Positions 3,926 through 50,424 of a stretch of DNA of 64,000 bases are shown here, piece after piece. Below the pieces are notes generated by a model, which was not told the DNA's origin, did no database searches, and worked only from the letters and a program-made list of their open reading frames with translations. Position 1 is the stretch's first letter. Each line of letters begins with the position of its first letter. Made by a program: the position numbers and the translations under genes. Location: NCBI RefSeq assembly GCF_988243305.1, contig NZ_OZ547136.1, one strand, 5' to 3'.

Positions 3926-4191
3926 TGCTCTCCCTGATTGCTTTAATGAAAAAGTCATATAAGTTGCCATGAACAATGTTTATTCATCCTGGCGATGATA
4001 GTTATCACCATTATTCTTTATGGGTATAAAACTATCGGCGCAGCATCCTACCCGTTATCGATAAACGATGCAAAACATCCCCTTACAATCCTGAAGGGGA
4101 ATAATACAACTGACGAAAAAATGACAAATCCTTTTGCTGGTTAACCTGTGTACTGTCCTACACTTAATCTTTAAAAGATTGTGAGGGGCAT

Positions 4192-4809
4192 ATGATTAAG
4201 GTGTATGGCGTACCCGGATGGGGCTCTACAATCAGTGAGCTGATGCTAACACTGGCTGATATTCCTTATCAGTTCGTTGATGTCAGTGGTTTTGACCACG
4301 AGGGAACCTCACGCGAGTTATTGAAAACCCTGAACCCGTTGTGTCAGATTCCGACACTGGCGCTGGAAAATGACGAGATTATGACGGAGACAGCGGCGAT
4401 TGCATTGATGGTTCTCGATCGTCGCCCGGACCTTGCGCCACCGGTTGGGCGCGCCGAACGTCAGCAGTTTCAACGGCTATTGGTCTGGCTGGTTGCTAAT
4501 GTCTATCCAACATTCACTTTCGCCGATTACCCTGAGCGTTGGGCTCCTGACGCACCCGAACAGTTAAAGAATAATGTTATTGAATATCGTAAATCGCTTT
4601 ATATCTGGCTGAATTCACAATTGACCGCTGAACCTTATGCCTTTGGCGAGCAACTAACGCTGGTGGACTGTTATCTCTGCACCATGCGCACATGGGGGCC
4701 GGGGCATGAATGGTTTCACGATAATGCGCAGAATATCAGTGCGATTGCTGAAGCTGTATGTCAGTTACCGAAATTACAAGAAGTATTAAAAAGGAATGTC
4801 ATTATTTAA
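4192..4809 (+). CDS. yncG: Glutathione S-transferase-like protein
   Basis: 205 aa, ATG start; GST-like N-terminal thioredoxin-fold pattern; position after ansP as in K-12. Confidence 0.8.
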   Translation: MIKVYGVPGWGSTISELMLTLADIPYQFVDVSGFDHEGTSRELLKTLNPLCQIPTLALENDEIMTETAAIALMVLDRRPDLAPPVGRAERQQFQRLLVWLVANVYPTFTFADYPERWAPDAPEQLKNNVIEYRKSLYIWLNSQLTAEPYAFGEQLTLVDCYLCTMRTWGPGHEWFHDNAQNISAIAEAVCQLPKLQEVLKRNVII

Positions 4810-5029
4810 CAATAATGCCGGAGGTTAATGTTAATGAATCACTGGCGTAATTAACTGGATATCCATTTGTTTGCTATGAATAGTAATTAAAGTTGGTACA
4901 ACTATTTATATGATTGATGTAATTTCGTTTTTTATATGAAATATCAATTTAATATAATCCGAAAATAAAACATCTTTTCGCATGTAGAGAAACATGTCGA
5001 TATGATAGTGCAGTGCAGATCATGTCATC

Positions 5030-5210
5030 AGGGTAGGGCGGTAGCGTATTTAATCAGGGAAAGATTACGCAACGCTGCTTTTTTGTATTGAACGATTCGC
5101 ATTTTATGTTTAAAAATTGCGATATTCCTTATTTCCTGAAGCTGTTTTTATTGCTTATACATGATCAAATACTCCTTACATAATTAAGGAGAACAAAATG
5201 GAACTTAATA
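5030..5210 (+). mobile_element. Remnant of H-repeat (ISAs1-family) element left end, ~150-180 bp, truncated right after the transposase start codon
   Basis: Near-identical to the 5' leader of the H-repeat copies at 10255-10440 and 14945-15095 (cagggaaagat...ttatgtttaaaaattg...gatcaaatactccttacataattaaggagaaca-ATG-GAACTTAA), then diverges. Confidence 0.6.
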
Positions 5211-5348
5211 CACGCCAACAATTTGTATTACTTAAATAGACCAGTGAAGGTACGCATCAGAACATCCGGTGAAGTGATTAATATTTCGTTGAATATTTCT
5301 CCCGATTTTTGAAACCTGCTGCTGTAGAAATTCTGAACAGGAGGAATT

Positions 5349-5633
5349 ATGCCTTTAGCAGCCAAACTCACCGACAAAGGCACCCAGCACGACGGTTATT
5401 ACGAGACCGTCATCACCGCCGGGTCATCCACCGTCTTTATCGATGGTCTTCCCGCAGCCCGTCAGGGAGATCCGCTGACGCCGCATGCTAAACCGAAGCA
5501 TCCCCCTCATCCCCGTAAAATCGCCAGAGGTTCTTCAACCGTCTTTATTGACGGCCTGCCCGCCGCCAGAAGCGGTGATGCTGTTGACTGCGGCGGCGTG
5601 GTTATTGGTGGCGGTACGGTAAATATAGGCTGA
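5349..5633 (+). CDS. PAAR-domain protein (T6SS spike tip)
   Basis: 94 aa; AGGAGG RBS 6-11 nt upstream; repeated GSSTVFIDGLPAAR(Q/S)GD motifs typical of PAAR; immediately upstream of vgrG. Confidence 0.75.
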   Translation: MPLAAKLTDKGTQHDGYYETVITAGSSTVFIDGLPAARQGDPLTPHAKPKHPPHPRKIARGSSTVFIDGLPAARSGDAVDCGGVVIGGGTVNIG

Positions 5634-5651
5634 TATGTCTGAGAGGTATTT

Positions 5652-7616
5652 ATGTCCTTAAAAGGTCTTCGCTTTACGCTGGAGGTTGACGGCCAGGAGC
5701 CGGACACCTTTGCAGTGGTGAATTTCAGGTTAATCCAGAACCAGTCATATCCGTTTGTGATGAGTGTGGATGTTGCCAGCGACTCTTTTATGCAGACGGC
5801 GGAGATGCTGCTGGAGAAGAAGGCGACACTGACCATCTGGCAGGGCGCAGTGGCGCAGCGTTATGTCACCGGCGTGGTGGCGGGTTTTGGCATGCAGGAG
5901 AATAACGGCTGGCAGATGCGTTATCACCTGCGTATTGAGCCGCCGTTATGGCGGTGCGGGCTGCGGCAGAACTTTCGTATCTTCCAGCAGCAGGATATCC
6001 GGACGATATCGGCCACGTTACTGAACGAGAACGGCGTCACGGAGTGGACGCCGCTGTTTTATGAGGACCATCCGGCGCGGGAGTTCTGTGTCCAGTACGG
6101 AGAGAGCGACCTGGCGTTTCTGTCCCGGCTGTGGGCGGAGGAGGGAATTTTCTTCTTTGAGCGGTTTGCGGCGGACAGTCCGGAGCAGAAGCTGACGCTG
6201 TGCGACGATGTGGCGGGGCTGTCACAGGCGGGGGAGTTTCCGTTTAACCCGGACACATCGGCAGGAGCGGAGACGGAGTGTGTCAGTATGTTCCGTTATG
6301 AGGCGCATGTCCGCCCGTCATCGGTGCAGAGCCAGGATTACACGTTTAAGGTGCCGGACTGGCCGGGGATGTATGAGCAGCAGGGTGAGAACCTGAACGG
6401 ACAGCTGGCGCAGTATGAGATATTTGATTATCCGGGAAGGTACAAGGATGAACAGCACGGCAAGGATTTCACGCTGTACCGGATGGAGAGCCTGCGCAGT
6501 GATGCGGAAAAGGCCACAGGGCAGAGTAATTCACCGAAGCTGTGGCCGGGAACGCGGTTTACGCTGACGGGGCATCCGCAGAAGATGCTGAACCGTGAAT
6601 GGCAGGTGGTACAGAGCATACTGTCAGGAAGCCAGCCGCAGGCGCTGCACGGCAGCCAGGGGAGAGGAACCACGCTGGGCAATCAGTTAGAGGTGATACC
6701 GGCGGACCGGACGTGGCGTCCACGGCTGCAAAGCAAACCGAAGGTGGACGGGCCACAGAGCGCCATTGTCACCGGTCCTGCGGGAGAGGAAATCTTCTGC
6801 GACGAACACGGACGTGTGCGAGTGCAGTTTCACTGGGACAGGTATAACCCGGCAACGGAGGCGAGTTCGTGCTGGGTGAGGGTGTCACAGGCGTGGGCGG
6901 GGCCGGGGTTCGGTAACCTGGCGATACCGCGGGTGGGCCAGGAGGTGATTGTTGATTTCCTGAACGGCGACCCGGACCAGCCGATAATCATGGGACGGAC
7001 ATACCATGAGGACAACCGTTCACCGGGGAGTCTGCCGGGGACGAAGACGCAGATGACGATACGGTCGAAGACCTATAAAGGTAGCGGATTTAACGAGCTG
7101 CGGTTTGAAGACGCCACCAGTAATGAGCAGGTGTATATCCATGCGCAGAAGAACATGGATACGGAGGTGCTCAACGACCGGACAACGGATGTGAAACATG
7201 ACCATACGGAAACCATCGGTAACAACCAGAAGATAACGGTGGTGAAGGGCCAGACGGTGAATGTGGGGAGCAAAAAGGAAGGTGGTCATGACCAGAAAGT
7301 GACAGTGGCGAATGACCAGACCATTACGGTACAAAACGATCAGCGGCTGGATGTTACCCACGATCGTCACAAGGATGTAGGGAACGATCAAATCAGTAAG
7401 ATAATAGGAAAAGATACCGAAGAAGTCGTGAAATCCCAGGATATTAAAGTTGGAGAAGATTACAGCCTGACAGTTACCAACAGCCTCACCATTAAAGTCG
7501 GTGAATGCTTACTGAAAATGAATAAGGACGGTACTATCATTCTCAATGGTAAAAGTATCCAGATTGAAGGAAAAGATAAAATCAATATTTTCGGCGCAGA
7601 TATTGATCTGGATTAA
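5652..7616 (+). CDS. vgrG: T6SS spike protein VgrG with divergent C-terminal tail
   Basis: 654 aa; canonical VgrG N-terminus (GLRFTLEVDG...PPLWRCGLRQNFRIFQ) and gp27/gp5-like body; last ~90 aa and underlying DNA (from ~7380) AT-rich and unlike the canonical VgrG C-terminus preserved at 11572-11916. Confidence 0.9.
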   Translation: MSLKGLRFTLEVDGQEPDTFAVVNFRLIQNQSYPFVMSVDVASDSFMQTAEMLLEKKATLTIWQGAVAQRYVTGVVAGFGMQENNGWQMRYHLRIEPPLWRCGLRQNFRIFQQQDIRTISATLLNENGVTEWTPLFYEDHPAREFCVQYGESDLAFLSRLWAEEGIFFFERFAADSPEQKLTLCDDVAGLSQAGEFPFNPDTSAGAETECVSMFRYEAHVRPSSVQSQDYTFKVPDWPGMYEQQGENLNGQLAQYEIFDYPGRYKDEQHGKDFTLYRMESLRSDAEKATGQSNSPKLWPGTRFTLTGHPQKMLNREWQVVQSILSGSQPQALHGSQGRGTTLGNQLEVIPADRTWRPRLQSKPKVDGPQSAIVTGPAGEEIFCDEHGRVRVQFHWDRYNPATEASSCWVRVSQAWAGPGFGNLAIPRVGQEVIVDFLNGDPDQPIIMGRTYHEDNRSPGSLPGTKTQMTIRSKTYKGSGFNELRFEDATSNEQVYIHAQKNMDTEVLNDRTTDVKHDHTETIGNNQKITVVKGQTVNVGSKKEGGHDQKVTVANDQTITVQNDQRLDVTHDRHKDVGNDQISKIIGKDTEEVVKSQDIKVGEDYSLTVTNSLTIKVGECLLKMNKDGTIILNGKSIQIEGKDKINIFGADIDLD

Positions 7617-7631
7617 TCTGGAGAAATTAAC

Positions 7632-8573
7632 ATGAATATTGAAAATGAAACTGGTTTTCCTCACTTTCAGTTCGAAAAAGTGGGATATTATGGTGAGTTA
7701 TTCACAGTAGTGGTAGTTAATCAGACATTTGATTTTTCATATAGCGGCGGTCTCTGTCTGATTGCGGATGAGCAGCGACTGCCACTGATGACCGACTCCT
7801 GGTACGGCGAACCGGAAAGCAGCAGTCTTAAAACAGCAACCGATTTGGTTTGCAGAAAAGTCAGGGCAGATGTTTTATTAAATGGACACGCATGGCATGC
7901 CACCGGGGAAACCACTCGATGGCAGGCCAGTTTACAGGTGGGTAATCTTCAGCGCCAATTTGATATATGTGGCCCTTGCCAATGGCAATATATATCTAAC
8001 CGCTGGCAACTTAGCGAACCTGAATTAACTGATCGGGTACTGTTACGCCATGAACTGGCGTCAGCCAGTGAATTTAATCCTGTAGGCATTGTTATTCCCT
8101 CCCTGATAACGCTTGGCGATAAATCGCCCTGTCCAGCTCCACAGTTATCTGCCTCACCAGGAGCTATTTGCCGTAGCTGGCCTTCACGATTGCGCTATGC
8201 CAGAGGTTTTACAGAACAGTGGCAAAAGACTGTTCAACCTTTTTATCCAGATGAATTCGATTTTGCATTCATGAATTATTCTCCACCAGAACAACAATAC
8301 GATGGTTATTTAATTGGCAATGAAAAAATTATATTGAACGGCCTGTTACCTTCTAAAATGGAACAAACTTGTTTCCTTCCAGATATTAGACTATTGGCGT
8401 ATTTGTTTTACCGCTCTGATAAAAACGTAGAACTGCGCCCATTGTTGGCTGACACACTGACCATCCACACAGACGATGAGCAACTAACACTACTCTGGCG
8501 CTTAACGCTCCCCGTGGATTCTCTTCCACAACGTATTGTTTTGACGACGGAGCAGAGGGGACCTCATGGCTGA
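7632..8573 (+). CDS. DUF2169-family T6SS adaptor protein
   Basis: 313 aa; N-terminus MNIENETGFPHF...FTVVVVNQTFDF fits the DUF2169 signature; 15 nt after vgrG stop and overlaps the next gene by 8 nt. Confidence 0.75.
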   Translation: MNIENETGFPHFQFEKVGYYGELFTVVVVNQTFDFSYSGGLCLIADEQRLPLMTDSWYGEPESSSLKTATDLVCRKVRADVLLNGHAWHATGETTRWQASLQVGNLQRQFDICGPCQWQYISNRWQLSEPELTDRVLLRHELASASEFNPVGIVIPSLITLGDKSPCPAPQLSASPGAICRSWPSRLRYARGFTEQWQKTVQPFYPDEFDFAFMNYSPPEQQYDGYLIGNEKIILNGLLPSKMEQTCFLPDIRLLAYLFYRSDKNVELRPLLADTLTIHTDDEQLTLLWRLTLPVDSLPQRIVLTTEQRGPHG

Positions 8574-9699
8574 AAATCATATTGGTTGTCGTGAATCGAA
8601 GTACGTTGCGATATGTATTGCGCCTGATGTCTGCAAGGTTGGTGATGCGATAGTGCCGTTTGACAGCTTTCAGAACCTGACACATGAGAAAATTTATATC
8701 AGCAATGTCAGGGCACGGGGCAATCCAATACTGACCGTGGACTGTATTATTGCAGGTACACGAAGTAATGCCGGGAAAGGTGTCAGTTCTGGCACCAGTC
8801 TGGGCAGCGGTGACTGCCGGATACTGACAGGCGTGGATCATATAAAGTGCAAGGGAAAGCCGGTAGCCAGGAATCTTTCGCTGGTTGCCATGAATAATGA
8901 TAATACTGTTGGAAAACTGTATACCCAGACAAACCCGCCAAATCAGATAATACCTGTTAAAGAATCATCGCTTTGGGCCAAGTATCTGGAACTGCAAATA
9001 CAACAGCAAGAGTTTGAGCTTGAGTCCAAAAAGCAAGAAGCAGATGCAATGATAGGATTAGGCAAGGCATTTATTAATGGCTGGTATATGTTGGGTGCAT
9101 TGATTGCCAAAGGTCAGATGCAAAATGACATTGCCCAAATGGAAAGTAATATTGCTCTGGCGAGAGGGTTGGGGATGGATACCCAAATTATGGAGCGGGC
9201 GAATGAGACCAACAGGGAGGTAATGGAAACTATTGATCCTAGAGAGCCATTGTTGAAACCTGCCAATGAAACCCAAGCAATGGCGATGGAGGTTGAGCCA
9301 TGGCTGGAACTTATGACCGGGGTTGGAGCACTGGTGAAAGGTTTGGTCAAGTTTTCAGCGAAGTTTGCAATAAAATCGGTTGGCAGAATGGGGAGGAGCG
9401 GTGCTAAAATTGTGCTGGATGCAAATGGATTGCCTATTCCTGTTCCTCCAAGCGTTGGCGCTGCGGGAAGAGTTCCGAGAGTATTACAAACTGGAGGTAA
9501 TACTCTTGAGGCAAGAACTGCCAGGGAGTTAAATGAATTTTTTGGTAAAAATATTAACAGGAGAGAATGGGGGAAAGCTTTAGAAAAGTTGAAAAAAGAT
9601 TTACGCTTACGAGGTGATCACCATGGTCGAATACTTGATAATGGTGATTATATTGATGACTCAGGAAATATTTTAGGAAACATAGAAGATTATTTATGA
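8566..9699 (+). CDS. DUF4150 (PAAR-like) N-terminal domain fused to unclassified C-terminal toxin domain; predicted T6SS effector
   Basis: 377 aa; N-terminal ~125 aa with PDVCK motif typical of PAAR-like DUF4150; C-terminal ~250 aa not recognisable by eye (ends ...RGDHHGRILDNGDYIDDSGNILGNIEDYL); start overlaps DUF2169 stop (ATGGCTGA). Confidence 0.7.
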   Translation: MAENHIGCRESKYVAICIAPDVCKVGDAIVPFDSFQNLTHEKIYISNVRARGNPILTVDCIIAGTRSNAGKGVSSGTSLGSGDCRILTGVDHIKCKGKPVARNLSLVAMNNDNTVGKLYTQTNPPNQIIPVKESSLWAKYLELQIQQQEFELESKKQEADAMIGLGKAFINGWYMLGALIAKGQMQNDIAQMESNIALARGLGMDTQIMERANETNREVMETIDPREPLLKPANETQAMAMEVEPWLELMTGVGALVKGLVKFSAKFAIKSVGRMGRSGAKIVLDANGLPIPVPPSVGAAGRVPRVLQTGGNTLEARTARELNEFFGKNINRREWGKALEKLKKDLRLRGDHHGRILDNGDYIDDSGNILGNIEDYL

Positions 9700-10175
9700 T
9701 TAAGAATATACAATCAAGGCTTACCCCGATATCTCATGAATATCCAAGTTGTGATGAGTGCTATGCTAGCCTCTTGATTTACACAGGTAATACTCACCCT
9801 AATGAAATAAGTATTCACTTAGAACTTGAGCCAACATCAATTAATATAAAAGGAGATGAAATTATTACTCTATCGGGAAAGAAAAGATATGCAAAAAATT
9901 CATATTGGATGCTCTCGTCAGAAAATCTAGTGAACTCGAAAGATATTCGAGAACATCTGGATTGGCTACTTCACAAACTTGGACCTAAATCATCAAATAT
10001 TGCAAAATTGCAAGCATTAGAAAATATTTCAATGGGTATTGACTGTACCTGGAGATCATTGAATTGGCACGGTGGGCCAACTTTATGGCCTGAGCAGATG
10101 AAAATAATGGCTAATCTTGGATTGGAGTGTTCATTTGATATTTATTTCGTCGGCAATGAAGATGGCAATCTTTAA
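9696..10175 (+). CDS. Candidate cognate immunity protein (cytoplasmic, no signal peptide)
   Basis: 159 aa; start overlaps effector stop (ATGA), suggesting translational coupling; AT-rich; no recognisable family. Confidence 0.5.
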   Translation: MIKNIQSRLTPISHEYPSCDECYASLLIYTGNTHPNEISIHLELEPTSINIKGDEIITLSGKKRYAKNSYWMLSSENLVNSKDIREHLDWLLHKLGPKSSNIAKLQALENISMGIDCTWRSLNWHGGPTLWPEQMKIMANLGLECSFDIYFVGNEDGNL

Positions 10176-10254
10176 TTATTGCTCGCAAATTTTTAATAAA
10201 CAAATAGCACAATAAAATACTCGGTATCTATGGTATATACCTAATAAACAAGGG

Positions 10255-11571
10255 CAGGGAAAGATCATCAGAAGTACACTTTTTGTACCAGGGAAAGATC
10301 ACGTAACGCTGCTTTTTTGTACTAAATAATTCGCATTTTATGTTTAAAAATTGAGATATTCCTCATTACCTGAAGCTGTTTTTTATTGAGTATACATGAT
10401 CAAATACTCCTTACATAATTAAGGAGAACACAATGGAACTTAAAAAATTGATGGAACATATTTCTATTATCCCCGATTACAGACAAGCCTGGAAAGTGGA
10501 GCATAAATTGTCGGATATTCTACTGTTGACTATTTGTGCCGTTATTTCTGGTGCAGAAGGCTGGGAAGATATAGAGGATTTTGGGGAAACACATCTCGAT
10601 TTTTTAAAACAATACGGTTATTTTGAAAATGGTATTCCTGTTCACGATACCATCGCCAGAGTTGTATCCTGTATCAGTCCTGCAAAATTTCACGAGTGCT
10701 TTATTAACTGGATGCGAGATTGCCATACTTCAGATGATAAAGACGTCATCACAATTGATGGAAAAACGCTCCGGCACTCTTATGACAAGAGTCGCCGCAG
10801 GGGAGCGATTCATGTCATTAGTGCGTTCTCAACAATGCACAGCCTGGTCATCGGACAGATCAAGACGGATGAGAAATCCAATGAGATTACAGCTATCCCA
10901 GAACTTCTTAACATGCTGGATATTAAAGGAAAAATCATCACAACTGATGCGATGGGTTGCCAGAAAGATATTGCAGAGAAGATACAAAAACAGGGAGGTG
11001 ATTATTTATTCGCTGTAAAAGGAAACCAGGGGCGGCTAAATAAAGCCTTCGAGGAAAAATTTCCGCTGAAAGAATTAAATAATCCAGAGCATGACAGTTA
11101 CGCAATTAGTGAAAAGAGTCACGGCAGAGAAGAAATCCGTCTTCACATTGTTTGCGATGTCCCTGATGAACTTATTGATTTCACGTTTGAATGGAAAGGT
11201 CTGAAGAAATTATGCGTGACAGTCTCCTTTCGGTCAATAATAGCAGAACAAAAGAAAGAGCCAGAAATGACGGTCAGATATTATATCAGTTCTGCTGATT
11301 TAACCGCAGAGAAGTTCGCCACAGCAATCCGAAACCACTGGCACGTGGAGAATAAGCTGCACTGGCGTCTGGACGTGGTAATGAATGAAGACGACTGCAA
11401 AATAAGAAGAGGAAATGCCGCAGAATTATTTTCAGGGATACGGCACATCGCTATTAATATTTTAACGAATGATAAGGTATTCAAGGCAGGGTTAAGATGT
11501 AAGATGCGAAAAGCAGCCATGGACAGAAACTACCTGGCGTCAGTCCTTGCTGGGAGCGGGCTTTCGTAATC
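10255..11571 (+). mobile_element. Intact H-repeat (ISAs1-family) element
   Basis: Left-end leader shared with two other copies; contains full 378 aa transposase ORF; right end abuts vgrG fragment. Confidence 0.8.
10433..11569 (+). CDS. H repeat-associated (ISAs1-family) transposase
   Basis: 378 aa [55 protein letters not shown]..., the conserved H-rpt ORF found with Rhs elements. Confidence 0.85.
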
Positions 11572-11916
11572 TTGCCCTGGCAGGAGCATAAGACGACGGG
11601 GAACCATGTCAGCCTGGTGGAGGGAAAGCACAGTCTGGAGGTGAAAGGCGATCTGGCGAGGAAGGTGAGTGGCACGCTGGGGATAAAGGTGGACGGGGAT
11701 ATCGTGCTGGAGAGCTGCAGCCGGATAAGCCTGAAGGTGGGCGGTTCGTTTATCGTTATTCAGTCGGGCGGTGTGGATATAGTGGGGCCGAAGATAAATC
11801 TTAATGGTGGGGGGAGTCCGGGGACACCGGTACCGACACTGCAACCCACTGTCCTGAACACTTTAGTCACTAATGATACGGATAGTAATACTGATGATGA
11901 TATCGGTAATGATTAG
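11572..11916 (+). pseudogene. vgrG: vgrG 3' fragment (canonical VgrG C-terminal ~110 aa), orphaned by H-repeat insertion or recombination
   Basis: Translation ...SRISLKVGGSFIVIQSGGVDIVGPKINLNGGGSPGTPVP matches canonical VgrG C-terminus; ORF-track start is a TTG immediately after transposase stop, so no genuine start. Confidence 0.7.
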
Positions 11917-12093
11917 ACCAGAGTGAAGTTCATGTTCTCGTAGCGGGATAATCATTCAGATAAAGATAACGGATGACGGTAGTAATAATAATACAATAAT
12001 ACTGTGATTTTCTGCTTTCTAAGCAGAGATGCTCTGTGAATGAATAATTCATACTCGTTACATGTTTTATAATCTTAATAAGGACTATTGATA

Positions 12094-14166
12094 ATGATAA
12101 TCAGCCCTCCAATATTGCATGCGCATATAGACACTGAAAAAGACTCTGACTGGGTAAACAGAATGATGTCTGTTGATCCAGAGAGAAATTTCCCAATGAA
12201 TAGCGGTCGTTCTTGGCATGGTGGAGTTCATTTGAACGGCAATCTGTCAGAGACTGTTAGGTGTATTGCCGATGGGAAGGTTATTTCAATACGCCAGCCA
12301 GAACCAGCGAAAAATACAGTTCCCCCGTTAAATTATAACGGAGTTACGGATAAAGGCTATGTTCTGATAAAACATGAAACAGAAATCGGTAGTGGAGAAG
12401 AGGGTAAAATCGTCTATTACTCATTATATATGCACCTGAGAAGCATTGACAGTAATGTGCAGCCGGGAAACACGCTATACCGGAAAGAACCGGTTGGTGC
12501 AGCAGGGATGGTGGACGGACAGAACGCCTTTCATTTTCAGATTTTTTGTGATGATGAAAACATTCAGAAAATCACAGGAAGAATATCACCGGAAACAGAC
12601 CTGAATAAAGATGGACGAACTAATGTGGTTTACGGTGATAGTCATTTTTATCTCCCTACCGGAACACCGATTTATGGGGACATGCCGGAAGAAAACTCGC
12701 TTGCGAACAACAGTCCGGTACAAAGAACCAGCGTGCCATTGTATGTCACAATGAGTTTTGATAAAGGCAATTGTACGATGGTGACGCGTCAGCAGCATGA
12801 AGTGCTGAGTGATTCCTATACTGAAGTAGGTTCTCCCTTGATTAATGCTGATGGTAAGGATTATGAATACAATCTCTATTCCTACGCGCTGCAACTCTAT
12901 CCGAAAAGCCCAAGTGCCGGTTATGAGATGCTGCGTTTTGGTCGGGTTGTTAATACAGAATATGAAGAATTAGTCCCGGCGGATGCGCCGCTGTGGAGAA
13001 CAATCAATACGCCACAGGGTAAAGGCGTTGTTAACTTAGGGGCGAGAGATATCAGGGTTTACAGCGACGGTGATTTTCCACACTGGACAGGGTGGAAACT
13101 GGTGAACGATGATGCGGACACCAACAGCCAGTGCAATTCACCAACAATCCTGTGTACAACCCGCAATGACCTAAGTCGGATGATTTGTCATTTTCCGCTA
13201 GAATGGGACAGCGCCACCGTGGAATCACGGTTTGAGTGGCTGAAATCACCCAATGACGTATTGAGTAAGCCGATGACAGAGCCTGACCTGGATTTGCTGA
13301 TAGAACACTGTAAGGCGCTTTGTTTGGTAGAGAATCCGTTACCTGCCAGGCGTGTATGGCATTTTGATCCCAGGCAGTTTATTGCACATTTCAGGAAATG
13401 TGGATGGTTAGGAGAAAATGATATTATAAGTGTGGTAAGACGTTATCAAAATGCTTATCCCATGACATCAGAACTTACAAGACCATTAAGTAAAGACACT
13501 CTAATTGAGCGGATTACTAGCCAAGGACAAAATAGCAGTGGTGAGATGATAAGACCTGCAGGGTTGAAAAATGAACTGTCAAAGTCACTAAGGAAGTACT
13601 TAATTACAACCCCATTGCGGATTGCGCATTATTTCGGTCAGATGGCGAGAGAAACAGGCAGATTTTCGTCTTTTATAGAGAATGGTGATTTGAGTTATTT
13701 TGATATGTATGAGCCAGGAACAGAACAGGGACTTAAGCTTGGAAATAATGTTGTTGGTGATGGTGCAAGATTTAAAGGCAGAGGTACCATACATCTAACT
13801 GGTCGTGAGAATTATAGAAATTATGGAAAGTATAGAAATCCGTCAGATGATGATTTTTTTACTACAGGACCCAATAACCAACTCCCAGTTGAAAATGCCT
13901 ATTTTTCTTGCGATGCCGGGGGATACTTTTGGGCAAGTAAGCAAAAATACATAATGGTAAGCCATCGATTGACACCTAGTGGTAGTTTAGGCGTTAATTA
14001 TTGGGCGGATAAAGGATGTAGTTTGTCACATGCCAGAGAAGTTACACGGCGAATAAACCCAGCAGCAGATGGCTTCGATTTAGTACGTTGGCCAGCATTT
14101 GAGCATTCTTGGTATGTATTGAATGATGAAATAACACCTCCACTTAATTACATAAGGATTGTTTAA
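12094..14166 (+). CDS. Predicted bifunctional peptidoglycan hydrolase effector: N-terminal M23-like peptidase domain, C-terminal GH19/lysozyme-like domain
   Basis: ORF-track start 12088 is TTG; ATG at 12094 has AAGGA RBS ~10 nt upstream (690 aa). N-terminal region aligns by eye to LytM/M23 (HGGVHL...YYSLYMHL...AFHFQIF) with non-canonical metal-ligand positions; C-terminal region carries GH19-like motifs (AHYFGQMARETG...GRGTIHLTGRENY...GGYFWASK). Confidence 0.7.
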   Translation: MIISPPILHAHIDTEKDSDWVNRMMSVDPERNFPMNSGRSWHGGVHLNGNLSETVRCIADGKVISIRQPEPAKNTVPPLNYNGVTDKGYVLIKHETEIGSGEEGKIVYYSLYMHLRSIDSNVQPGNTLYRKEPVGAAGMVDGQNAFHFQIFCDDENIQKITGRISPETDLNKDGRTNVVYGDSHFYLPTGTPIYGDMPEENSLANNSPVQRTSVPLYVTMSFDKGNCTMVTRQQHEVLSDSYTEVGSPLINADGKDYEYNLYSYALQLYPKSPSAGYEMLRFGRVVNTEYEELVPADAPLWRTINTPQGKGVVNLGARDIRVYSDGDFPHWTGWKLVNDDADTNSQCNSPTILCTTRNDLSRMICHFPLEWDSATVESRFEWLKSPNDVLSKPMTEPDLDLLIEHCKALCLVENPLPARRVWHFDPRQFIAHFRKCGWLGENDIISVVRRYQNAYPMTSELTRPLSKDTLIERITSQGQNSSGEMIRPAGLKNELSKSLRKYLITTPLRIAHYFGQMARETGRFSSFIENGDLSYFDMYEPGTEQGLKLGNNVVGDGARFKGRGTIHLTGRENYRNYGKYRNPSDDDFFTTGPNNQLPVENAYFSCDAGGYFWASKQKYIMVSHRLTPSGSLGVNYWADKGCSLSHAREVTRRINPAADGFDLVRWPAFEHSWYVLNDEITPPLNYIRIV

Positions 14167-14170
14167 AACA

Positions 14171-14674
14171 ATGAATTTTAAAAAAACAATAATCACTTCG
14201 GTAGGTTTGATATTTATTTCATTCTCTTTTGTGGCAGAGTGCTCTCAACTCAAAAATTTGAATAATTACTCAGTGATGCTTTGTGGAAAAGTGTCAAGTA
14301 ATATCCTTGATGATATTGGTGGTTATAAAGAAAGAGATAAAAAATCCGAAATGGTAGATTTACTTATATTAATTAGTAATGACGAGCCTATCGGTGTTTC
14401 TGAGACCAAAGTGATTTCTAATGGTAAAATATATTTTAAGGGGGAAAGTACTATGAACTTGGATGCCTCATTCATTATGACAATAAATGGTGGAGTTCAT
14501 ACTGACACTGTCACTTATATATCAAAGAAGAATAAAATTATCGGGGGCTACTTTTATAATAATGAGAGTAAAACTGATAAGCTTAAGGAAGTATATATCT
14601 CAAACACAGGAACTGTATATCATATAAATATTGAAAGTGTCAGCGATGATAAATGTCTTGATAAATTTAAGTAA
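14171..14674 (+). CDS. Candidate periplasmic immunity protein (Sec signal peptide)
   Basis: ORF-track start 14159 is TTG; ATG at 14171 gives MNFKKTIITSVGLIFISFSFVAEC... with hydrophobic signal sequence; 4 nt after effector stop; AT-rich. Confidence 0.5.
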   Translation: MNFKKTIITSVGLIFISFSFVAECSQLKNLNNYSVMLCGKVSSNILDDIGGYKERDKKSEMVDLLILISNDEPIGVSETKVISNGKIYFKGESTMNLDASFIMTINGGVHTDTVTYISKKNKIIGGYFYNNESKTDKLKEVYISNTGTVYHINIESVSDDKCLDKFK

Positions 14675-14944
14675 CGATAAGGCAAGGATGATTGATTGGG
14701 TTTAGTTAAGTTTCGAGAACAAATTTCCGCGGCAGAGAGTATAAATGTAGGGGCAAGAATGCTAAAATCGTGAAGTGCACCACAACTATAATTCCAGTTT
14801 ACTTTGTTTATTTGATTGTAATTTAACCATTAAATGATTAGGTTTTTTAGAAAAGGACGTCTGATGAATGTTTAAATTAATTTTGAATACATTTCAATTA
14901 TTTTGTTGTATGTTGGCAAGGTCAAATAAGACATAATTTAATGG

Positions 14945-15650
14945 CAGGGAAAGATCATCGTAAGTACACTTTTTGTACTAAATAATTTGCATTTTATGTT
15001 TAAAAATTGAGATATTCCTCATCACCTGAAGCTGTTTTTTATTACTTATATATGATCAAATACTCCTTACATAAATAAGGAGAACAAAATGGAACTTAAA
15101 AAATTGATGGAACATATTTCTATTATCCCCGATTACAGACAAGCCTGGAAAGTGGAACATAAATTATCGGATATTCTACTGTTGACTATTTGTGCTGTTA
15201 TTTCTGGTGCAGAAGGATGGGAAGATATAGAGGATTTTGGGGAAACACATCTCGATTTTTTGAAGCAATATTGTGATTTTGATAATGGTATTCCTGTTCA
15301 CGATACCATTGCCAGAGTTGTATCCTGTATCAGTCCTGAAAAATTTCATGAGTGCTTTATTAACTGGATGCTTGACTGCCATTCTTCAGATGATAAAGAC
15401 GTCATTGCAATTGATGGAAAAACGCTCCGGTACTCTTATGACAAGAGTCGTCGCAAGGGAGCGATTCACGTTATTAGTGTGTTCTCAATAATGCACAGTC
15501 AGATTCCTTGGAAGATCAAGACGAATGAAAAAAACAATGAGATTACAGCTGTTTCTGAATTTCTTAACATAATGGGTATTAAAGGAAAAATAATTGCACC
15601 GATCCAATGTGATACCAGAAAGACATCGCTAAGAAGATAGCTATAGACAA
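14945..15650 (+). mobile_element. Truncated H-repeat (ISAs1-family) element, 5' ~700 bp only
   Basis: Same left-end leader as the copy at 10255; transposase ORF frameshifted and truncated (183 aa) relative to the intact copy. Confidence 0.75.
15089..15640 (+). pseudogene. H-repeat transposase, truncated/frameshifted
   Basis: 183 aa, highly similar to residues 1-175 of the intact copy, then diverges and stops. Confidence 0.75.
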
Positions 15651-15713
15651 TTATTACCCTCCGTCAGCCCTTGTTAAGCGAGGAGAGACGTAATCTGTCC
15701 AGTCCCCTAATGC

Positions 15714-16811
15714 TTATAAAGCCCATCGATTTCGCCCACTTTCTTTCGCCCGGTATAACGCAGCGTCGGCATCTGAAATAATTTGTTCAGCCGTTTTTGC
15801 GGGAGCAGAACAGGTAATCCCCTGACTAACCGTAACGAATGCATTAACAGCAGATGCCTGATGTGGGATAGCTGCCAGTTTAAGTTCTTGCTTCACTCTG
15901 GCTGCTACCGTCTTTGCTTCCGGCAATGTTGCATTAAAAAGTATGATGGCAAACTCTTCGCCACCATAACGGACAACAACATCCTCCGACTGGCGAGTTG
16001 AACGCTGTAGAGCGTCGGCAACTTGTATTAGACAACGATCCCCAGCAGGATGCCCGTAAGTGTCGTTGTAACGTTTAAAAAAATCGACATCCAGCATAAT
16101 AAGAGCAAATGACCCGCCGTTATCCATCGCGTCGTGTAAGATACTGTTCATTGCACGTCGGTTTGCTATCCCAGTTAAAGGATCACGATGTGCTAATGCA
16201 TCAAGGCGATTAATTAACTGGTTGTTATAACTGTTTTGTACCCATGCTTCTTCAAACCAACGTAACAAAATGAGTCGCCCACCATATAGCGCCAGTGAAA
16301 AAATACACCATACAACAGCAAAATGAATATTGATCTGTTGATTAAGCATAAGACTCGCTATTGGAGTGGTGAACCATAAGGGAATGACAAATGCGAGCAA
16401 TGATGGGGTATGGAAATAAAGTGCGACAACGCCACTAAGCATTAATAATACACATAGTGGATAAGCAAACTGCAGCGTCCAGTACGCAATAAAGTGATAA
16501 CTACACCATGACCATAGCAGGCTCAGGGCAACTAATAGCACCTGGATAGGTAATGTTTTTTGCCGAGGGATGAGTAGTAAACCACTGCAAATCAGCAGAA
16601 TACCCGTTGCAGATATATCAATAGAATGTATAAGGCTTTTTTCATTTAACCAGGGTGGAGTAAGGTCATTAAACAGAACACGGCGCAGCAAAATTATCAA
16701 TGCAAAACTGACATTGATAAAAGCAAACCATGGCAAACTAATTGTCATGCCGCGGATAACCATATCGCGGCGTGTTTGCCACGAGTGATGCGTTTTTCTT
16801 CTTTCAGCCAT
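15714..16811 (-). CDS. Membrane-anchored diguanylate cyclase (GGDEF domain)
   Basis: 365 aa; N-terminal multi-TM region; C-terminal GGDEF domain with RYGGEEF active-site motif and conserved DVDFFKRYND...GH.AGD pattern; absent from this position in K-12. Confidence 0.85.
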   Translation of the reverse strand: MAERRKTHHSWQTRRDMVIRGMTISLPWFAFINVSFALIILLRRVLFNDLTPPWLNEKSLIHSIDISATGILLICSGLLLIPRQKTLPIQVLLVALSLLWSWCSYHFIAYWTLQFAYPLCVLLMLSGVVALYFHTPSLLAFVIPLWFTTPIASLMLNQQINIHFAVVWCIFSLALYGGRLILLRWFEEAWVQNSYNNQLINRLDALAHRDPLTGIANRRAMNSILHDAMDNGGSFALIMLDVDFFKRYNDTYGHPAGDRCLIQVADALQRSTRQSEDVVVRYGGEEFAIILFNATLPEAKTVAARVKQELKLAAIPHQASAVNAFVTVSQGITCSAPAKTAEQIISDADAALYRAKESGRNRWAL

Positions 16812-16857
16812 TTTTTAGCCAAATAAGGGCAGGAGACCTGCCCGATACAGAGTAAAA

Positions 16858-18834
16858 TTATGGTGTCACTATATTGAACCAAAATTCAAAATTATCCATA
16901 TAACCTAACAGCTCGTTGAGCTTTTCCGCATTGCCGGTAATTTTGACATCACCTTTGTCCGTGGCTTCTTTCAGCGTCTCTTCTTTCAGTACAATTTTGT
17001 TCAATACATCACGAGATAGAGAGATAGTGGCATCAGCCTCCGAAGCCTCTACACCAGCGGTATGATTGAGAACACCATTTTCAAGCTCTACCTTATAGGT
17101 GCCGCCATCTTCACCAAAATCGAAATTCAACACGGCTTTGGCATCTGCCGCTTTCTCACCATTAATATGGACGGCAAGATAATCAAAGAACATTTCTGGC
17201 GTCATTGCACGCACAGTGTCAGGGCTGGCAGTATTTGGTGTTGGTAATTTTTGTACGCCGTTACGCAATTCCTGTGCACCAGTGAGATAGAAATTACGCC
17301 ACGGCCCAGATTCAGCCTGATAGCCTAACTGCTCAAGCGCATCAGCTTCCAGATTTCTCGCTGCCTGGTTGTTTGGATCCGCAAACACCACCTTACTAAC
17401 AACTTGGGCAACCCAGCGGAAATTACCCTGGTCATAATCCTGTTTGGCTTTCTGTAAAATGGCATCAGCACCGCCCATATACTCGACGAATTTTTTTGCG
17501 CCTTCTTCTGGCGGTAGTTCATCAAGCGTCGCGGGGTTACCATCAAACCAGCCGAGATAAAGCACGTAAGTTGCTTTCACGTCATGACTTACCGAACCGT
17601 AATAGCCGCGATTCGCCCAGGTGTTAGCCAGTGAAGAGGGCAGTTTAAAGTTTGCGGCAATTTCATCACGGGTCATCCCTTGATTAGCCATGCGCAGAGT
17701 TTGATCATTGATGTAACGATACAAATCACGCTGGCTTTTAAGCAGTTTGACCACGTTATCGTTGCCCCAGGTTGGCCAGTGATGTTGAGCGAGAATAATC
17801 TCGGCTTTATCACCCCACAAATTGAGAGCTTCATTAATATATTTTGACCACGGCAGCGGTTGGCGAATTTTAGCCCCACGCAGCGAATAGGTGTTATGAA
17901 GGGTGTGCGTGACATCTTCAGCGGTTTCGATCAGTTTCTTTTCTTCAATAAACCACAGCATTTCAGAAGGCGCTTCAGAACCTGGCGCCATCAGGAAATC
18001 ATAAGTCAACCCGTCAATAGTTTCTTTTTGTCCGGTTTTGGTGATGTAGTTAGTAGGAGCAATCAACGTGACTGTTCCTGCTGAAGTAGTCGTTCCCAGT
18101 CCAGCCCCCACCTGGCCTTTAACATCAGGTTTCAATAAGTTGCCATACATATAACTGGCTCGTCGGCTCATCACATTGCCAGCCATAATATTTTCGGAAA
18201 CGGCTTCCTCCAAAAATCCGGCTGGCGCATAGATTTTAACTTTGCCTGATTTAACGTCAGCTTCATCAATTACGCCACGAACACCACCGTAGTGATCGAC
18301 ATGACTGTGTGTATAGATAACCGCCACTACCGGTTTTTTGCCGCGATTTTTGTAATAGAGATCCATACCCACTTTGGCTGTTTCTGCTGAAACAAGGGGA
18401 TCAACGACGGTAATACCCTCTTTGCCTTCAATGATGGTCATATTTGATAGATCGAGATTGCGAATCTGATAGACACCTTCAGTTACTTCGAATAACCCGC
18501 TGATATTTATCAGTTGCGCCTGACGCCATAAACTCGGATTCACCGTATCAGGGGCTTTATCGCCTTCTTTGATAAAAGCGTAATGTTGTGGATCCCAGAT
18601 AACATTCCCTTGTTCGCCCTTAATCACGTCTTGAGGGATAGGGGCAATAAAACCTTTATGGGCATCAGTAAAGTCAGTGTTATCGGCAAACGGCAACTGG
18701 TTGGAGAGTAAATTGTTTGCTTGTTGCGTGGCTGCGGTGGCGTCTTTAGGAGCTTCCGCCGCGAGGAGAGGTAAAGAACTGGTGGTGAATAATCCCGTTA
18801 TTAGCAGACTTTTAACGATATGATTAAGCTGCAT
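16858..18834 (-). CDS. Secreted alkyl/aryl sulfatase, metallo-beta-lactamase fold (YjcS/SdsA1/BDS1-like)
   Basis: 658 aa; signal peptide MQLNHIVKSLLITGLFTTSSLPLLAAEAP; MBL motif THSHVDHYGG; C-terminal SCP2-like dimerisation region typical of the family; not at this locus in K-12. Confidence 0.8.
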   Translation of the reverse strand: MQLNHIVKSLLITGLFTTSSLPLLAAEAPKDATAATQQANNLLSNQLPFADNTDFTDAHKGFIAPIPQDVIKGEQGNVIWDPQHYAFIKEGDKAPDTVNPSLWRQAQLINISGLFEVTEGVYQIRNLDLSNMTIIEGKEGITVVDPLVSAETAKVGMDLYYKNRGKKPVVAVIYTHSHVDHYGGVRGVIDEADVKSGKVKIYAPAGFLEEAVSENIMAGNVMSRRASYMYGNLLKPDVKGQVGAGLGTTTSAGTVTLIAPTNYITKTGQKETIDGLTYDFLMAPGSEAPSEMLWFIEEKKLIETAEDVTHTLHNTYSLRGAKIRQPLPWSKYINEALNLWGDKAEIILAQHHWPTWGNDNVVKLLKSQRDLYRYINDQTLRMANQGMTRDEIAANFKLPSSLANTWANRGYYGSVSHDVKATYVLYLGWFDGNPATLDELPPEEGAKKFVEYMGGADAILQKAKQDYDQGNFRWVAQVVSKVVFADPNNQAARNLEADALEQLGYQAESGPWRNFYLTGAQELRNGVQKLPTPNTASPDTVRAMTPEMFFDYLAVHINGEKAADAKAVLNFDFGEDGGTYKVELENGVLNHTAGVEASEADATISLSRDVLNKIVLKEETLKEATDKGDVKITGNAEKLNELLGYMDNFEFWFNIVTP

Positions 18835-19139
18835 CTTAAGCGTCTCCAGAATGGATTTTTATTGGGGGTAATTACGGATGAAAATTTTTAGTGAGGGCAA
18901 GAATAACTATAATGGGCGTTAACAAATTGGCAAGCCGGGAAATTGATGTTTTCTTAATGGCATGTTGGCGAAGAATATATTCTGCAAGTTAACGTTTTCA
19001 TTGGCGCTTTATTTAAAAGTGTGTAGTACAAATATGTACAATTTCAAGTAGGCATTATTGCCGTAAAAACGCATTACCGGACACACGACATTCACAACGT
19101 GTGTTAATTTTACTGACATCTTTCAAAAGGAGCACAATC

Positions 19140-23388: not shown

Positions 23389-24932
23389 TATTCGCCCTCC
23401 GCTTTGTCGCGCACTTCGGTGATGTTGATGGCATCGATACGGCTACTGTTGAACAGGTTGAATTTGCTGTCCGAACCGTGGCAACCGTCGCCAAAGGTAA
23501 AACCGCAGCCATTTCGTTCTGCGAAGGCATCGCCCGCCATTTCCCGATGGCTGGTCGGGATGACAAAACGATCTTCATAGTTGGCAATGGCGAGATAGCG
23601 ATACATCTCTTCGACCTGGATGACGCTCAGGCCTACTTCGTCGATGGCACGAGTATCAGTAACGCCTTCCACGGTTTGTGAACGCATATAGTGGCGCATC
23701 GCCATCATCCGTTTCAGCGCCCGCAGTACCGGACCGGTATCGCCAGCACTCAACATATTGGCGAGATATTGCACCGGAATACGCAGGCTTTCGATAGCAG
23801 GCAGCACGCCTTCGCTTTTCGGCAAACCGCCCGCATCAGCGTAAGACTGAATCGGTGACAGCGGAGGAACGTACCAGACCATCGGCAGGGTGCGATATTC
23901 AGGGTGCAGCGGTAGCGCCAGTTTCCAGTCCATCGCCATTTTGTAGACTGGCGAACGCTGGGCTGCTTCAATCACGTTTTGTGGAATACCTTGTTTCAGG
24001 GCTTCCTCGATCACTGAGGGATCGTGTGGATCGAGGAATACTTCGCACTGGCGTTCATAGAGGTCAACTTCGCGCTCGGTGCTCGCTGCTTCTTCGATGC
24101 GGTCGGCGTCGTAGAGCAGCACGCCCAGATACCGGATGCGACCCACGCAGGTTTCTGAGCACACGGTGGGTTGGCCTGACTCAATTCGTGGGTAACAGAA
24201 GATACATTTTTCTGACTTGCCGCTTTTCCAGTTGAAGTAGATTTTTTTGTACGGACAACCGCTAATGCACAAACGCCAGCCACGGCATTTATCCTGATCA
24301 ATCAGCACAATGCCGTCTTCTTCACGTTTGTAGATAGCACCGCTTGGGCAGGTCGCCACGCAGCTGGGATTGAGGCAGTGTTCGCATAGGCGCGGCAGGT
24401 ACATCATGAACGTGTTTTCAAACTGCCCGTACATCTCCTTTTGCATGGCCTCTAAGTTGCGGTCATGGGCGCGTTTTTCGAATTCGCCGCCCAACAATTC
24501 TTCCCAGTTTGGCCCCCAGATCACTTTGTCCATCCGTTTGCCGTCAATCAGTGAACGCGGGCGAGCAGTAGGGATATGTTTGCCTTCCGGTGCGCTATGC
24601 AAATGTTCGTAGTCGAAGGTGAAAGGTTCGTAGTAATCATCAATCTGCGGCACCACCGGGTTGGCGAAGATTTTGGTTATTACGCCCATCTTGCTGCCCA
24701 GACGCGGGCGGATCTTGCCATTCACATCACGCACCCAGCCGCCTTGCCACTCTTCCTGATCTTCCCAGTTTTTCGGATAACCAATGCCCGGTTTGGTTTC
24801 GACGTTGTTAAACCATGCGTACTCCATGCCTTCGCGTCCGGTCCAGACGTTTTTACAGGTCACCGAACAGGTATGGCAACCGATACATTTATCGAGGTTA
24901 AGCACCATGCCGACTTGCGAACGTATTTTCAT
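23388..24932 (-). CDS. narY: Nitrate reductase Z beta subunit (Fe-S)
   Basis: 514 aa with four Cys clusters (CIGCHTC..., CEHC..., CRGWRLC..., CIFCYPR...). Confidence 0.9.
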   Translation of the reverse strand: MKIRSQVGMVLNLDKCIGCHTCSVTCKNVWTGREGMEYAWFNNVETKPGIGYPKNWEDQEEWQGGWVRDVNGKIRPRLGSKMGVITKIFANPVVPQIDDYYEPFTFDYEHLHSAPEGKHIPTARPRSLIDGKRMDKVIWGPNWEELLGGEFEKRAHDRNLEAMQKEMYGQFENTFMMYLPRLCEHCLNPSCVATCPSGAIYKREEDGIVLIDQDKCRGWRLCISGCPYKKIYFNWKSGKSEKCIFCYPRIESGQPTVCSETCVGRIRYLGVLLYDADRIEEAASTEREVDLYERQCEVFLDPHDPSVIEEALKQGIPQNVIEAAQRSPVYKMAMDWKLALPLHPEYRTLPMVWYVPPLSPIQSYADAGGLPKSEGVLPAIESLRIPVQYLANMLSAGDTGPVLRALKRMMAMRHYMRSQTVEGVTDTRAIDEVGLSVIQVEEMYRYLAIANYEDRFVIPTSHREMAGDAFAERNGCGFTFGDGCHGSDSKFNLFNSSRIDAINITEVRDKAEGE

Positions 24933-28669: not shown

Positions 28670-28763
28670 GACATAACTCCTGCTCCAGGAATGAATTGGG
28701 ATCTGATGCCTTGTCGGATGCGACACGGTTGTAGCCTGATAAGACGTGTCAGGCATCGATCTC

Positions 28764-30152: not shown

Positions 30153-30466
30153 ATTGTTCCTCACATGTACACATTGGTAATGAAAAAAAGACAAAACAGG
30201 AGGTAAGGCGCAATAGCCAGTTATTAGAATTAAGGATGAATTGGGTGAAGTGCTGATTGAAAGAATAGATAAGAAAGCGTAACCGCGGGGGCAGAATGGG
30301 GATTAAACAGACAGATATGTGTTACTAAATGTAACTAACAAGCTAACCATTAAACGGATGTTAACCTATGTATGCATGTCATGATCCAACCCTTCAGATG
30401 ATGAATCCAAAGGGTTTATATTTTTAACAAGACCAGACACTTATAGAATTAGTGATAATTTATTCA

Positions 30467-50411: not shown

Positions 50412-50424
50412 GACAGTTTCCTGA

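Follow-up and report, generated by a model that had tools for sequence, protein, structure and literature searches.

The yncG–pptA interval of the 64-kb stretch of DNA analysed here (the window, from contig NZ_OZ547136.1) contains one complete spike cassette of a type VI secretion system (T6SS), named cassette A below, followed by an insertion sequence (IS) and by the effector and immunity genes of a second cassette, B, whose own vgrG gene is represented by no more than its 3′ end. The question raised by this locus is how an intact effector gene came to be parted from its carrier, and the answer that we consider probable is that the locus is a cassette array from which the carrier of cassette B was lost in an event associated with the H-repeat (H-rpt) element ISEc1, leaving cassette A complete and effector B stranded. 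Coordinates below are positions within the window, population counts refer to a set of 5426 complete genomes, and H1 (NZ_CP148331.1) is the complete genome closest to the window over the island. Alignment to K-12 stops at 4807, beside the yncG stop codon, and restarts at 19051, upstream of pptA, which leaves 4808–19050 as the strain-variable stretch. The gene order of K-12 at this site is yncG-yncH-rhsE'-ydcD-yncI-ydcC-pptA, with rhsE a pseudogene and H-rpt present in two copies, and the alignment places the island, as an earlier reading made from the sequence without database searches (the sequence-only reading) had done, where K-12 has rhsE'.

The nature of the breakpoint is recorded in the vgrG-B fragment. 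VgrG-B carries an extended 'KINLNGGGSPG...' tail, and 109 of the 114 residues encoded by the fragment are identical to the C-terminus of the intact 715-aa VgrG of strain ECNB21-M121. At the junction 11579|11580 the right terminus of ISEc1 (its right inverted repeat) meets the equivalent of nt 1784 of vgrG-B, and from this nucleotide on the DNA to the right of ISEc1 aligns to strain PS10-3 at 98% identity. The breakpoint is IS-associated, since the first nucleotide of the fragment immediately follows the right terminus of ISEc1. Homology between vgrG-A and vgrG-B ends at about nt 1692–1715; the fragment starts about 70–90 nt beyond this point and keeps none of the conserved vgrG core. The ISEc1 copy itself is, over 1292 nt, 95.8% identical to K-12 ydcC, and its terminal inverted repeats agree at 15 of 18 positions. 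It has no target-site duplication, its flanks (...TTTTTGTAC and GCAGGAGC...) being different, as is expected after a deletion or IS–IS recombination. In other strains cassette A closes with an ISAs1 copy, and the 34-nt vestige that ISEc1 abuts on the left is what remains of its left end. The same IS/vgrG-B junction is found in three complete genomes (H1, AST215 and SC418; origins Korea, Japan and the USA). H1 is also the single genome that matches the whole window arrangement with at least 80% query coverage (99.8% identity over 13 kb), and its RefSeq annotation lists the same genes as the window island.

The sequence-only reading had proposed a comparison of the locus across E. coli genomes, and the modules between yncG and pptA do vary by strain: cassettes of types A, B, C (M35) and Rhs occur at the site, each with its own PAAR and vgrG genes and a closing ISAs1 element, and their order varies. 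In PS10-3 both cassettes are complete and stand in the same order as in the window (PAAR-vgrG-A-...-ISAs1-PAAR-vgrG-B-M23-imm-ISAs1); relative to it, 2441 bp are missing from the window, comprising the intergenic stretch after the middle IS, PAAR-B and the 5′ part of vgrG-B. MS1170 has cassette A followed by the M35 cassette, and in ECNB21-M121 and 33E, each with an intact 715-aa vgrG-B gene, the array opens with an intact cassette B and continues with a further PAAR. Effector and immunity genes of cassette A were found in 119 genomes and those of cassette B, in full, in 19. ATCC 25922 and Nissle 1917 are among 134 complete genomes in a further state: behind an M35-type cassette, all that remains of the effector B gene is its final 234 nt, next to part or all of immunity B; this remnant is a true replacement scar at this locus, in genomes other than the window. 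In AST215 and SC418 cassette A is absent, immunity B is gone and the left end of a hybrid IS interrupts the effector B open reading frame (ORF) behind its first 47 nt.

Two side observations concern these arrays. The hybrid IS of AST215 (L008 9700–9800) and SC418 (L009) combines an ISEc1-type left end with the body of the truncated third IS, the element that lies last in the window island, and is the footprint of an IS insertion followed by IS–IS recombination. Separately, PS10-3 (L007), 1504D004 (L003) and ES5 (L013) all carry the same −1 frameshift where vgrG-B has an A7 tract; it could stem from inherited decay or from slippage.

Cassette A is complete in the window and, by analogy, should work like the characterised VgrG–DUF2169–PIPY spikes (PMC11883445). 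The DUF2169 gene is contiguous, overlaps included, with vgrG-A and with the DUF4150/PAAR-like gene, and profile searches support the VgrG, DUF2169 and DUF4150 assignments of the sequence-only reading (Table 1). VgrG-A and VgrG-B are ~95% identical to about residue 560 and divergent beyond it; the tail of VgrG-A is short and blunt, of the type that accompanies DUF2169/PIPY partners, and the same tail is present in the DUF2169-linked core vgrG of H1. Toxin A consists of a PAAR-like (DUF4150/PIPY) domain, a helical linker and a C-terminal domain of ~80 aa. Over its first 250 aa it is similar to the N-terminal part of the T6SS Rhs protein in PDB entry 8qjc (1.1e-15), and its PIPY position reads A-I-V-P-F (residues 28–32), with the second proline and the aromatic residue kept but not the first proline. 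In H1, T for G at 9565 creates a stop codon that leaves a toxin A of 333 aa, compared with the intact 377 aa of the window copy.

The C-terminal domain of toxin A recurs in 352 cluster representatives, always at the extreme C-terminus of proteins that range from 65 to 3822 aa and include CdiA-type (DUF637, haemagglutinin repeats), Rhs/YD-shell and PAAR-like carriers. Q18, K53 and H63 are invariant in the alignment, in which other conserved residue types include R, E and Y. The domain matched no Pfam family, and a fold search with its confident structural model (predicted local distance difference test, pLDDT, 87.6) returned no solved structural neighbour. It is a genuine, as yet uncharacterised, polymorphic-toxin domain. 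The start of immunity A overlaps the toxin A stop by 4 nt, and in two Rhs-type carriers with Pfam data a DUF4279 gene likewise follows a domain of this type with a 4-nt overlap; DUF4279 has been described as an immunity family (PMC9424270, PMC13304343). Because immunity A has no N-terminal signal sequence, the putative site of action of the toxin A C-terminal domain is probably the cytoplasm.

The window is collinear with H1 over 1000–64000, and no T6SS core genes are annotated in the H1 stretch collinear with the window, in keeping with the statement of the sequence-only reading that the window holds none. That reading had also supposed that the island depends on a T6SS encoded elsewhere, and this is supported by proxy: H1 has a complete T6SS-1 cluster near yafV (2.008–2.041 Mb), with hcp, tssB, tssC, tssE, tssF, tssG, tagH, tssJ, tssK, tssL, clpV, tssA and tssM as well as two vgrG cassettes. 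In H1, the PAAR of the island and that of the core cluster share one protein accession, the 5′ end of the island vgrG (window-equivalent 5652–6562) is 100% identical to both core vgrGs, and none of the three vgrG copies has a B-type tail. Between the window and H1, 17 substitutions are clustered at 5975–6556 within vgrG-A, a pattern that indicates a gene-conversion tract among vgrG paralogues. The family defined by the PAAR–vgrG 5′ segment is present in 700 genomes, with a median of two copies.

Effector B is predicted, from its model and its homologies, to consist of an N-terminal M23/LytM-like domain followed by a GH19-like muramidase domain at the C-terminus. Its match to Pfam M23 was weak (3.2e-4) and no NCBIfam entry matched it; comparison of residues 1–199 with PDB chains by sequence gave chance matches only, and the M23 assignment came from the fold search. 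In that search, the AlphaFold2 model (pLDDT 84.8; predicted template modelling score, pTM, 0.89) matched lysostaphin, LytM, Csd2 and the LytM domain of EnvC (E 4.5e-5 to 1e-3), and Foldseek also matched it to 9ms7 (target-normalised TM-score 0.85), to the GH19 endolysin 9eoi and to chitinase C. The sequence of the C-terminal domain in turn matches endolysin 9ms7 (1.4e-9) and 8xcl (TseP-C; E 8e-4). The fold matches to lysostaphin/LytM and GH19 proteins, with the sequence match to 9ms7, bear out the name 'M23/GH19 hydrolase' given by the sequence-only reading. In 37 homologues W41-H42-G43-G44-x-H46 (WHGGxH), D60, H94, H114 and H147 are invariant, as are E520, the candidate catalytic Glu, and G562-R563-G564 in the C-terminal part; the metal motif is HxxxH, in contrast to the HxxxD of canonical M23.

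The effector B family (861 matches) comprises ~700-aa proteins in Enterobacterales, Chromobacterium and others. Homologues lie directly behind vgrG in E. coli, Yersinia and Chromobacterium, with a small ORF next in the latter two, and in every intact cassette B the effector stands behind a VgrG with the matching extended tail. The immunity B ORF always adjoins effector B in the strains compared; its N-terminus is hydrophobic (a signal peptide judged by eye), and the protein is presumed to be periplasmic. Because its cognate carrier VgrG-B has been lost, effector B is probably undeliverable in the window and heading for loss, and immunity B may still guard against those rare strains in which cassette B is intact. 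Thus, of the proposal in the sequence-only reading that both modules remain intact and could be active or kept for immunity, the first part stood, the ORFs of both effectors and both immunity proteins being intact, and activity of the second module became doubtful, effector B being probably stranded without VgrG-B.

We propose the following scheme for the locus. The yncG–pptA site would be an array of self-contained T6SS-1 spike cassettes. Each would comprise a canonical PAAR, a vgrG in which a conserved 5′ part of ~1.7 kb precedes a tail particular to the cassette, in some cases an adaptor, then an effector with its immunity gene, and an ISAs1-family element. By analogy with characterised DUF2169–PIPY systems, DUF2169 would chaperone the PAAR-like toxin A onto the tip of VgrG-A, the T6SS-1 machine encoded elsewhere would fire the spike, and the cytoplasm of the target would be where the ~80-aa C-terminal domain acts; in kin, DUF4279 would neutralise it. 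Cassette B would once have been equipped with a PAAR of its own and with a 715-aa VgrG-B, whose tail would have carried the M23-like/GH19-like peptidoglycan hydrolase, acting in the periplasm. PAAR-B, together with ~1783 nt from the start of vgrG-B, would have been lost in an ISEc1-associated event that spared the tail fragment, the effector and the immunity gene. Starting from a PS10-3-like array of two cassettes, a deletion would be the most parsimonious route, whether it arose next to an IS or through two ISEc1 copies recombining with each other, and immunity B would still protect against strains with an intact cassette B.

Several points weigh against this loss of the cassette B carrier from a working array. 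The core cluster was seen in a relative, H1, which is ~99.8% identical over the island but mosaic elsewhere, and the PIPY motif of toxin A is partly conserved (IVPF). The effector B ORF is intact and 98–99% identical to copies in intact cassettes, which leaves room for a recent loss of the carrier or for delivery of effector B by another route. The order of events, tandem array and then deletion, is argued from parsimony, and the same product would result from a one-step replacement in which cassette A DNA hit an ancestral cassette B, with a left crossover in the PAAR–vgrG 5′ segment and an ISEc1 end in vgrG-B as the right joint, so that the old VgrG-B tail, effector and immunity gene stayed downstream in the manner of displaced Rhs tips. 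This is the workable form of the model put forward in the sequence-only reading, and we regard it as a rather unlikely contender. The PAAR–vgrG 5′ segments of all cassettes, which are 93–97% identical and undergo gene conversion, make good recombination substrates; in some strains cassette B occurs alone, in the same upstream context; the scars in the 134 genomes with the 3′ end of the M23 gene and immB behind an M35 cassette attest to replacement; and A30 has an 800-nt vgrG fragment with conserved core sequence. The window fragment, however, has no conserved core, and the 34-nt vestige shows that cassette A already had a terminal IS, as in tandem arrays; replacement would moreover need IS-end joining in addition to a homologous crossover, compared with one deletion from the PS10-3 arrangement. 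Displacement as known for Rhs tips, as the sequence-only reading had it, is further disfavoured by the complete tandem of PS10-3, by the variable order of cassettes and by the start of the fragment at an IS terminus. Sliding identity of the vgrG 5′ end against A- and B-type copies did not separate the two models, since the alleles are scrambled by gene conversion.

A different possibility is that both cassettes function as they are, with effector B loaded onto VgrG-A, a core-cluster VgrG or the canonical PAAR, with the vgrG-B fragment irrelevant and with two toxins delivered by the island. The ORFs of effector B and immunity B are intact, the domains of Aeromonas TseP each bind VgrG directly and are separately secretable (PMC11893102), and the island has a spare canonical PAAR beside the PAAR-like toxin. 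We nonetheless judge it improbable, since all intact cassettes, and other genera as well, have the effector directly behind a VgrG with a matching extended tail, a type of tail found neither in VgrG-A, whose tail is of the short PIPY type, nor among the three H1 vgrGs, and since neither effector B nor immunity B is retained in the sister genomes AST215 and SC418. An assembly artefact, by collapse or mis-join across the repeated ISAs1 and vgrG sequences, is hardly credible: three ISAs1 left ends and the vgrG paralogues in the region could mislead an assembler, but the 13-kb arrangement is reproduced at 99.8% in the independent complete genome H1, and it was rejected on the recurrence of the IS/vgrG-B junction in three independent complete genomes.

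Table 1. Features of the yncG–pptA region; coordinates are those of the window unless a comparison sequence is named.
Feature	Coordinates	Strand	Evidence and remarks
AT-rich island-specific leader	4808–5054		K-12 homology ends at 4807
ISAs1-family left-end remnant	5055–5208	+	154 nt; terminal inverted repeat to transposase ORF nt 10 (repeat families D2, D3)
PAAR	5349–5633	+	NF033420, 156.5 bits (cutoff 124); 94 aa
vgrG-A	5652–7616	+	TIGR03361, 606 bits; 654 aa
DUF2169 chaperone/adaptor	7632–8573	+	PF09937, 1.7e-49
Toxin A, PAAR-like (DUF4150/PIPY)	8566–9699	+	PF13665, 2.7e-10; 377 aa
Immunity A, DUF4279 (FdL-Imm5)	9696–10175	+	PF14106, 2.1e-18
ISAs1 left-end vestige	10255–10288	+	34 nt (repeat family D4); abuts ISEc1
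ISEc1 (H-rpt), full-length	10289–11579	+	1291 bp; transposase 10433–11569, 378 aa, NF033564 414 bits
vgrG-B 3′ fragment	11580–11916 (ORF 11572–11916)	+	Last ~112 codons, cargo-specific tail
Effector B hydrolase	12094–14166	+	690 aa; 692 aa from TTG at 12088
Immunity B	14171–14674	+	167 aa; 171 aa from TTG at 14159
Cassette B remnant found behind the M35 cassette in other genomes	Window 13933–14339 (some genomes to 14674); L005 15063–15469; L006 7911–8793		
Truncated ISAs1-family element	14945–15640	+	696 nt; transposase 15089–15640, NF033564 169 bits
GGDEF-domain gene and alkyl-sulfatase gene	15714–18834	−	Strain-variable flank between truncated IS and pptA

The gene content from PAAR to the truncated H-rpt given by the sequence-only reading is confirmed by profile and domain matches and by homology, and the ten ORFs that it named are all intact and on the + strand. 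Its inventory of elements was sound for the genes listed and omitted the IS remnant at 5055–5208, the vestige at 10255–10288 and the GGDEF and alkyl-sulfatase genes. Promoter- and terminator-like sites showed no enrichment over shuffled sequences.

The other IS sequences of the island and the ISAs1 termini of other strains likewise point to IS-mediated rearrangement of a cassette array, and not to displacement of a tip by recombination alone. AST215 and SC418 have a full-length IS at the site of the 5055 remnant. The third IS is cut after 696 nt and retains 183 N-terminal transposase codons (NF033564 profile positions 1–142 of 314). ISAs1 right ends abut three different sequences by strain, namely the DNA upstream of pptA (K-12, PS10-3 and A30), the 3′ end of the GGDEF gene (L1PEag1) and the inside of vgrG-B, and the GGDEF/alkyl-sulfatase flank is missing where the right end abuts 19051, as in K-12, PS10-3 and A30. 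Next to the third IS we observed that its truncated end is joined, at 15641–15816, to 176 nt in which the 3′ end of the GGDEF gene is preserved intact. A complete IS right end overlaps this gene in L1PEag1 and shortens it. Another observation concerns the 825-nt 'ISAs1 family transposase' that closes cassettes both at yncG–pptA and in the T6SS-1 core of H1: it is the same 312-bp internal-deletion derivative at both loci, the deletion corresponding to 10821–11132 of the window and occurring in L002, L003, L007 (two copies), L012, L014 and L011. There is no repeat at the breakpoints of this deletion, and the copies therefore share descent; the derivative could have spread by duplication of a cassette plus its IS or by mobilisation in trans.

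Comparison of the surroundings with H1 gave two further side observations. The segment 18001–24000 (the 3′ end of the sulfatase gene, pptA, yddH, nhoA and yddE) is up to 10% divergent from H1, and it is flanked by 4001–18000 and 24001–33000, which are nearly identical to H1; from this sequence pattern it looks like a recombination import beside the island. At 49768–50494 the window has 725 bp that are missing from H1, the ddpA of which is annotated without its N-terminus, and the difference is a deletion in H1 and not an insertion in the window.

A more far-reaching interpretation, which we offer as a speculation of rather low probability, is that ISAs1/H-rpt elements are not bystanders but working punctuation of the cassette system and, separately, that the C-terminal domain of toxin A is a new enzymatic toxin class. 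As punctuation, the full-length ISEc1 may supply transposase in trans for the internally deleted ISAs1 derivative. A new class of toxin is possible because the domain matches no Pfam family and no solved fold. If the interpretation were true, ISAs1 and the conserved PAAR–vgrG 5′ repeat would together allow whole spike cassettes to pile up in tandem, change order, pass from one locus to another and be cut back by deletions at IS ends.

Much of this has precedents. The vgrG islands of E. coli (Ma et al. 2018, VT1–VT5, as cited in PMC6730261) likewise place a vgrG away from the core cluster, followed by effector/immunity pairs, and depend on a core T6SS elsewhere, and EDL933 has a vgrG2–rhsE island at the same chromosomal site (PMC7216683). 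The window differs from the E. coli vgrG islands in stacking two cassettes, the second decapitated by an IS, an arrangement present in 1 of the 5426 complete genomes. Cassette A has the composition of VgrG–DUF2169–PIPY complexes (Sachar et al. 2025, PMC11883445; Agrobacterium Tde2-type loci), with vgrG, DUF2169, a PAAR-like toxin with a C-terminal domain, and immunity, and departs from them in its IVPF motif, in the canonical PAAR upstream of vgrG and in its uncharacterised toxin domain. For cassette B the nearest parallel is TseP of A. dhakensis, a chimeric amidase–lysozyme effector that binds its VgrG directly and the lysozyme domain of which is 8xcl (PMC11893102). As in the TseP family and in the bifunctional Tse4 of Acinetobacter, effector B of intact cassettes is a predicted two-domain peptidoglycan hydrolase encoded right behind its carrier vgrG, and as in TseP it is predicted by modelling to join an N-terminal metal domain of the M23/LytM fold to a C-terminal lysozyme-like domain; its domain sizes and its metal site (residues 42–147, with the motif HxxxH, compared with H339 of TseP) are different.

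The position of an older effector/immunity unit downstream of a newer one recalls displaced Rhs and CdiA orphan tips and the aux clusters of Vibrio cholerae, for which sequential effector displacement has been reported (Kirchberger et al. 2017, again as cited in PMC6730261). As with orphan tips, immunity outlives the effector, the 134 genomes keeping only the cassette B remnant; unlike displaced Rhs tips, the window boundary is an IS terminus, the fragment has no core and two-cassette intermediates exist. Like the H-rpt copies of K-12 RhsE, ISAs1 elements flank and separate the cassettes of the window. ISAs1 has been reported to be enriched beside orphan T6SS islands of the chromosome (PMC13098142), and what the present locus shows beyond this are base-pair footprints: varied abutting DNA, hybrid IS copies and an internal-deletion derivative shared by two loci. 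Thus, vgrG islands, the EDL933 vgrG2–rhsE island, orphan immunity genes and ISAs1 enrichment are already published, and what the locus presents is a rare combination of cassettes already known, together with informative IS footprints and one uncharacterised toxin domain.

The picture of T6SS biology is unchanged by these findings, which add base-pair detail to the published association of ISAs1 with orphan islands. They provide a worked example of how the T6SS arsenal of E. coli turns over at one hotspot, by stacking of cassettes, gene conversion with core vgrGs and erosion at ISAs1 ends, the last of which leaves stranded effectors and orphan immunity genes. Two practical leads follow: a widespread, uncharacterised toxin domain paired with DUF4279 immunity, and a natural experiment in whether or not an effector that depends on a VgrG tail survives the loss of its carrier.

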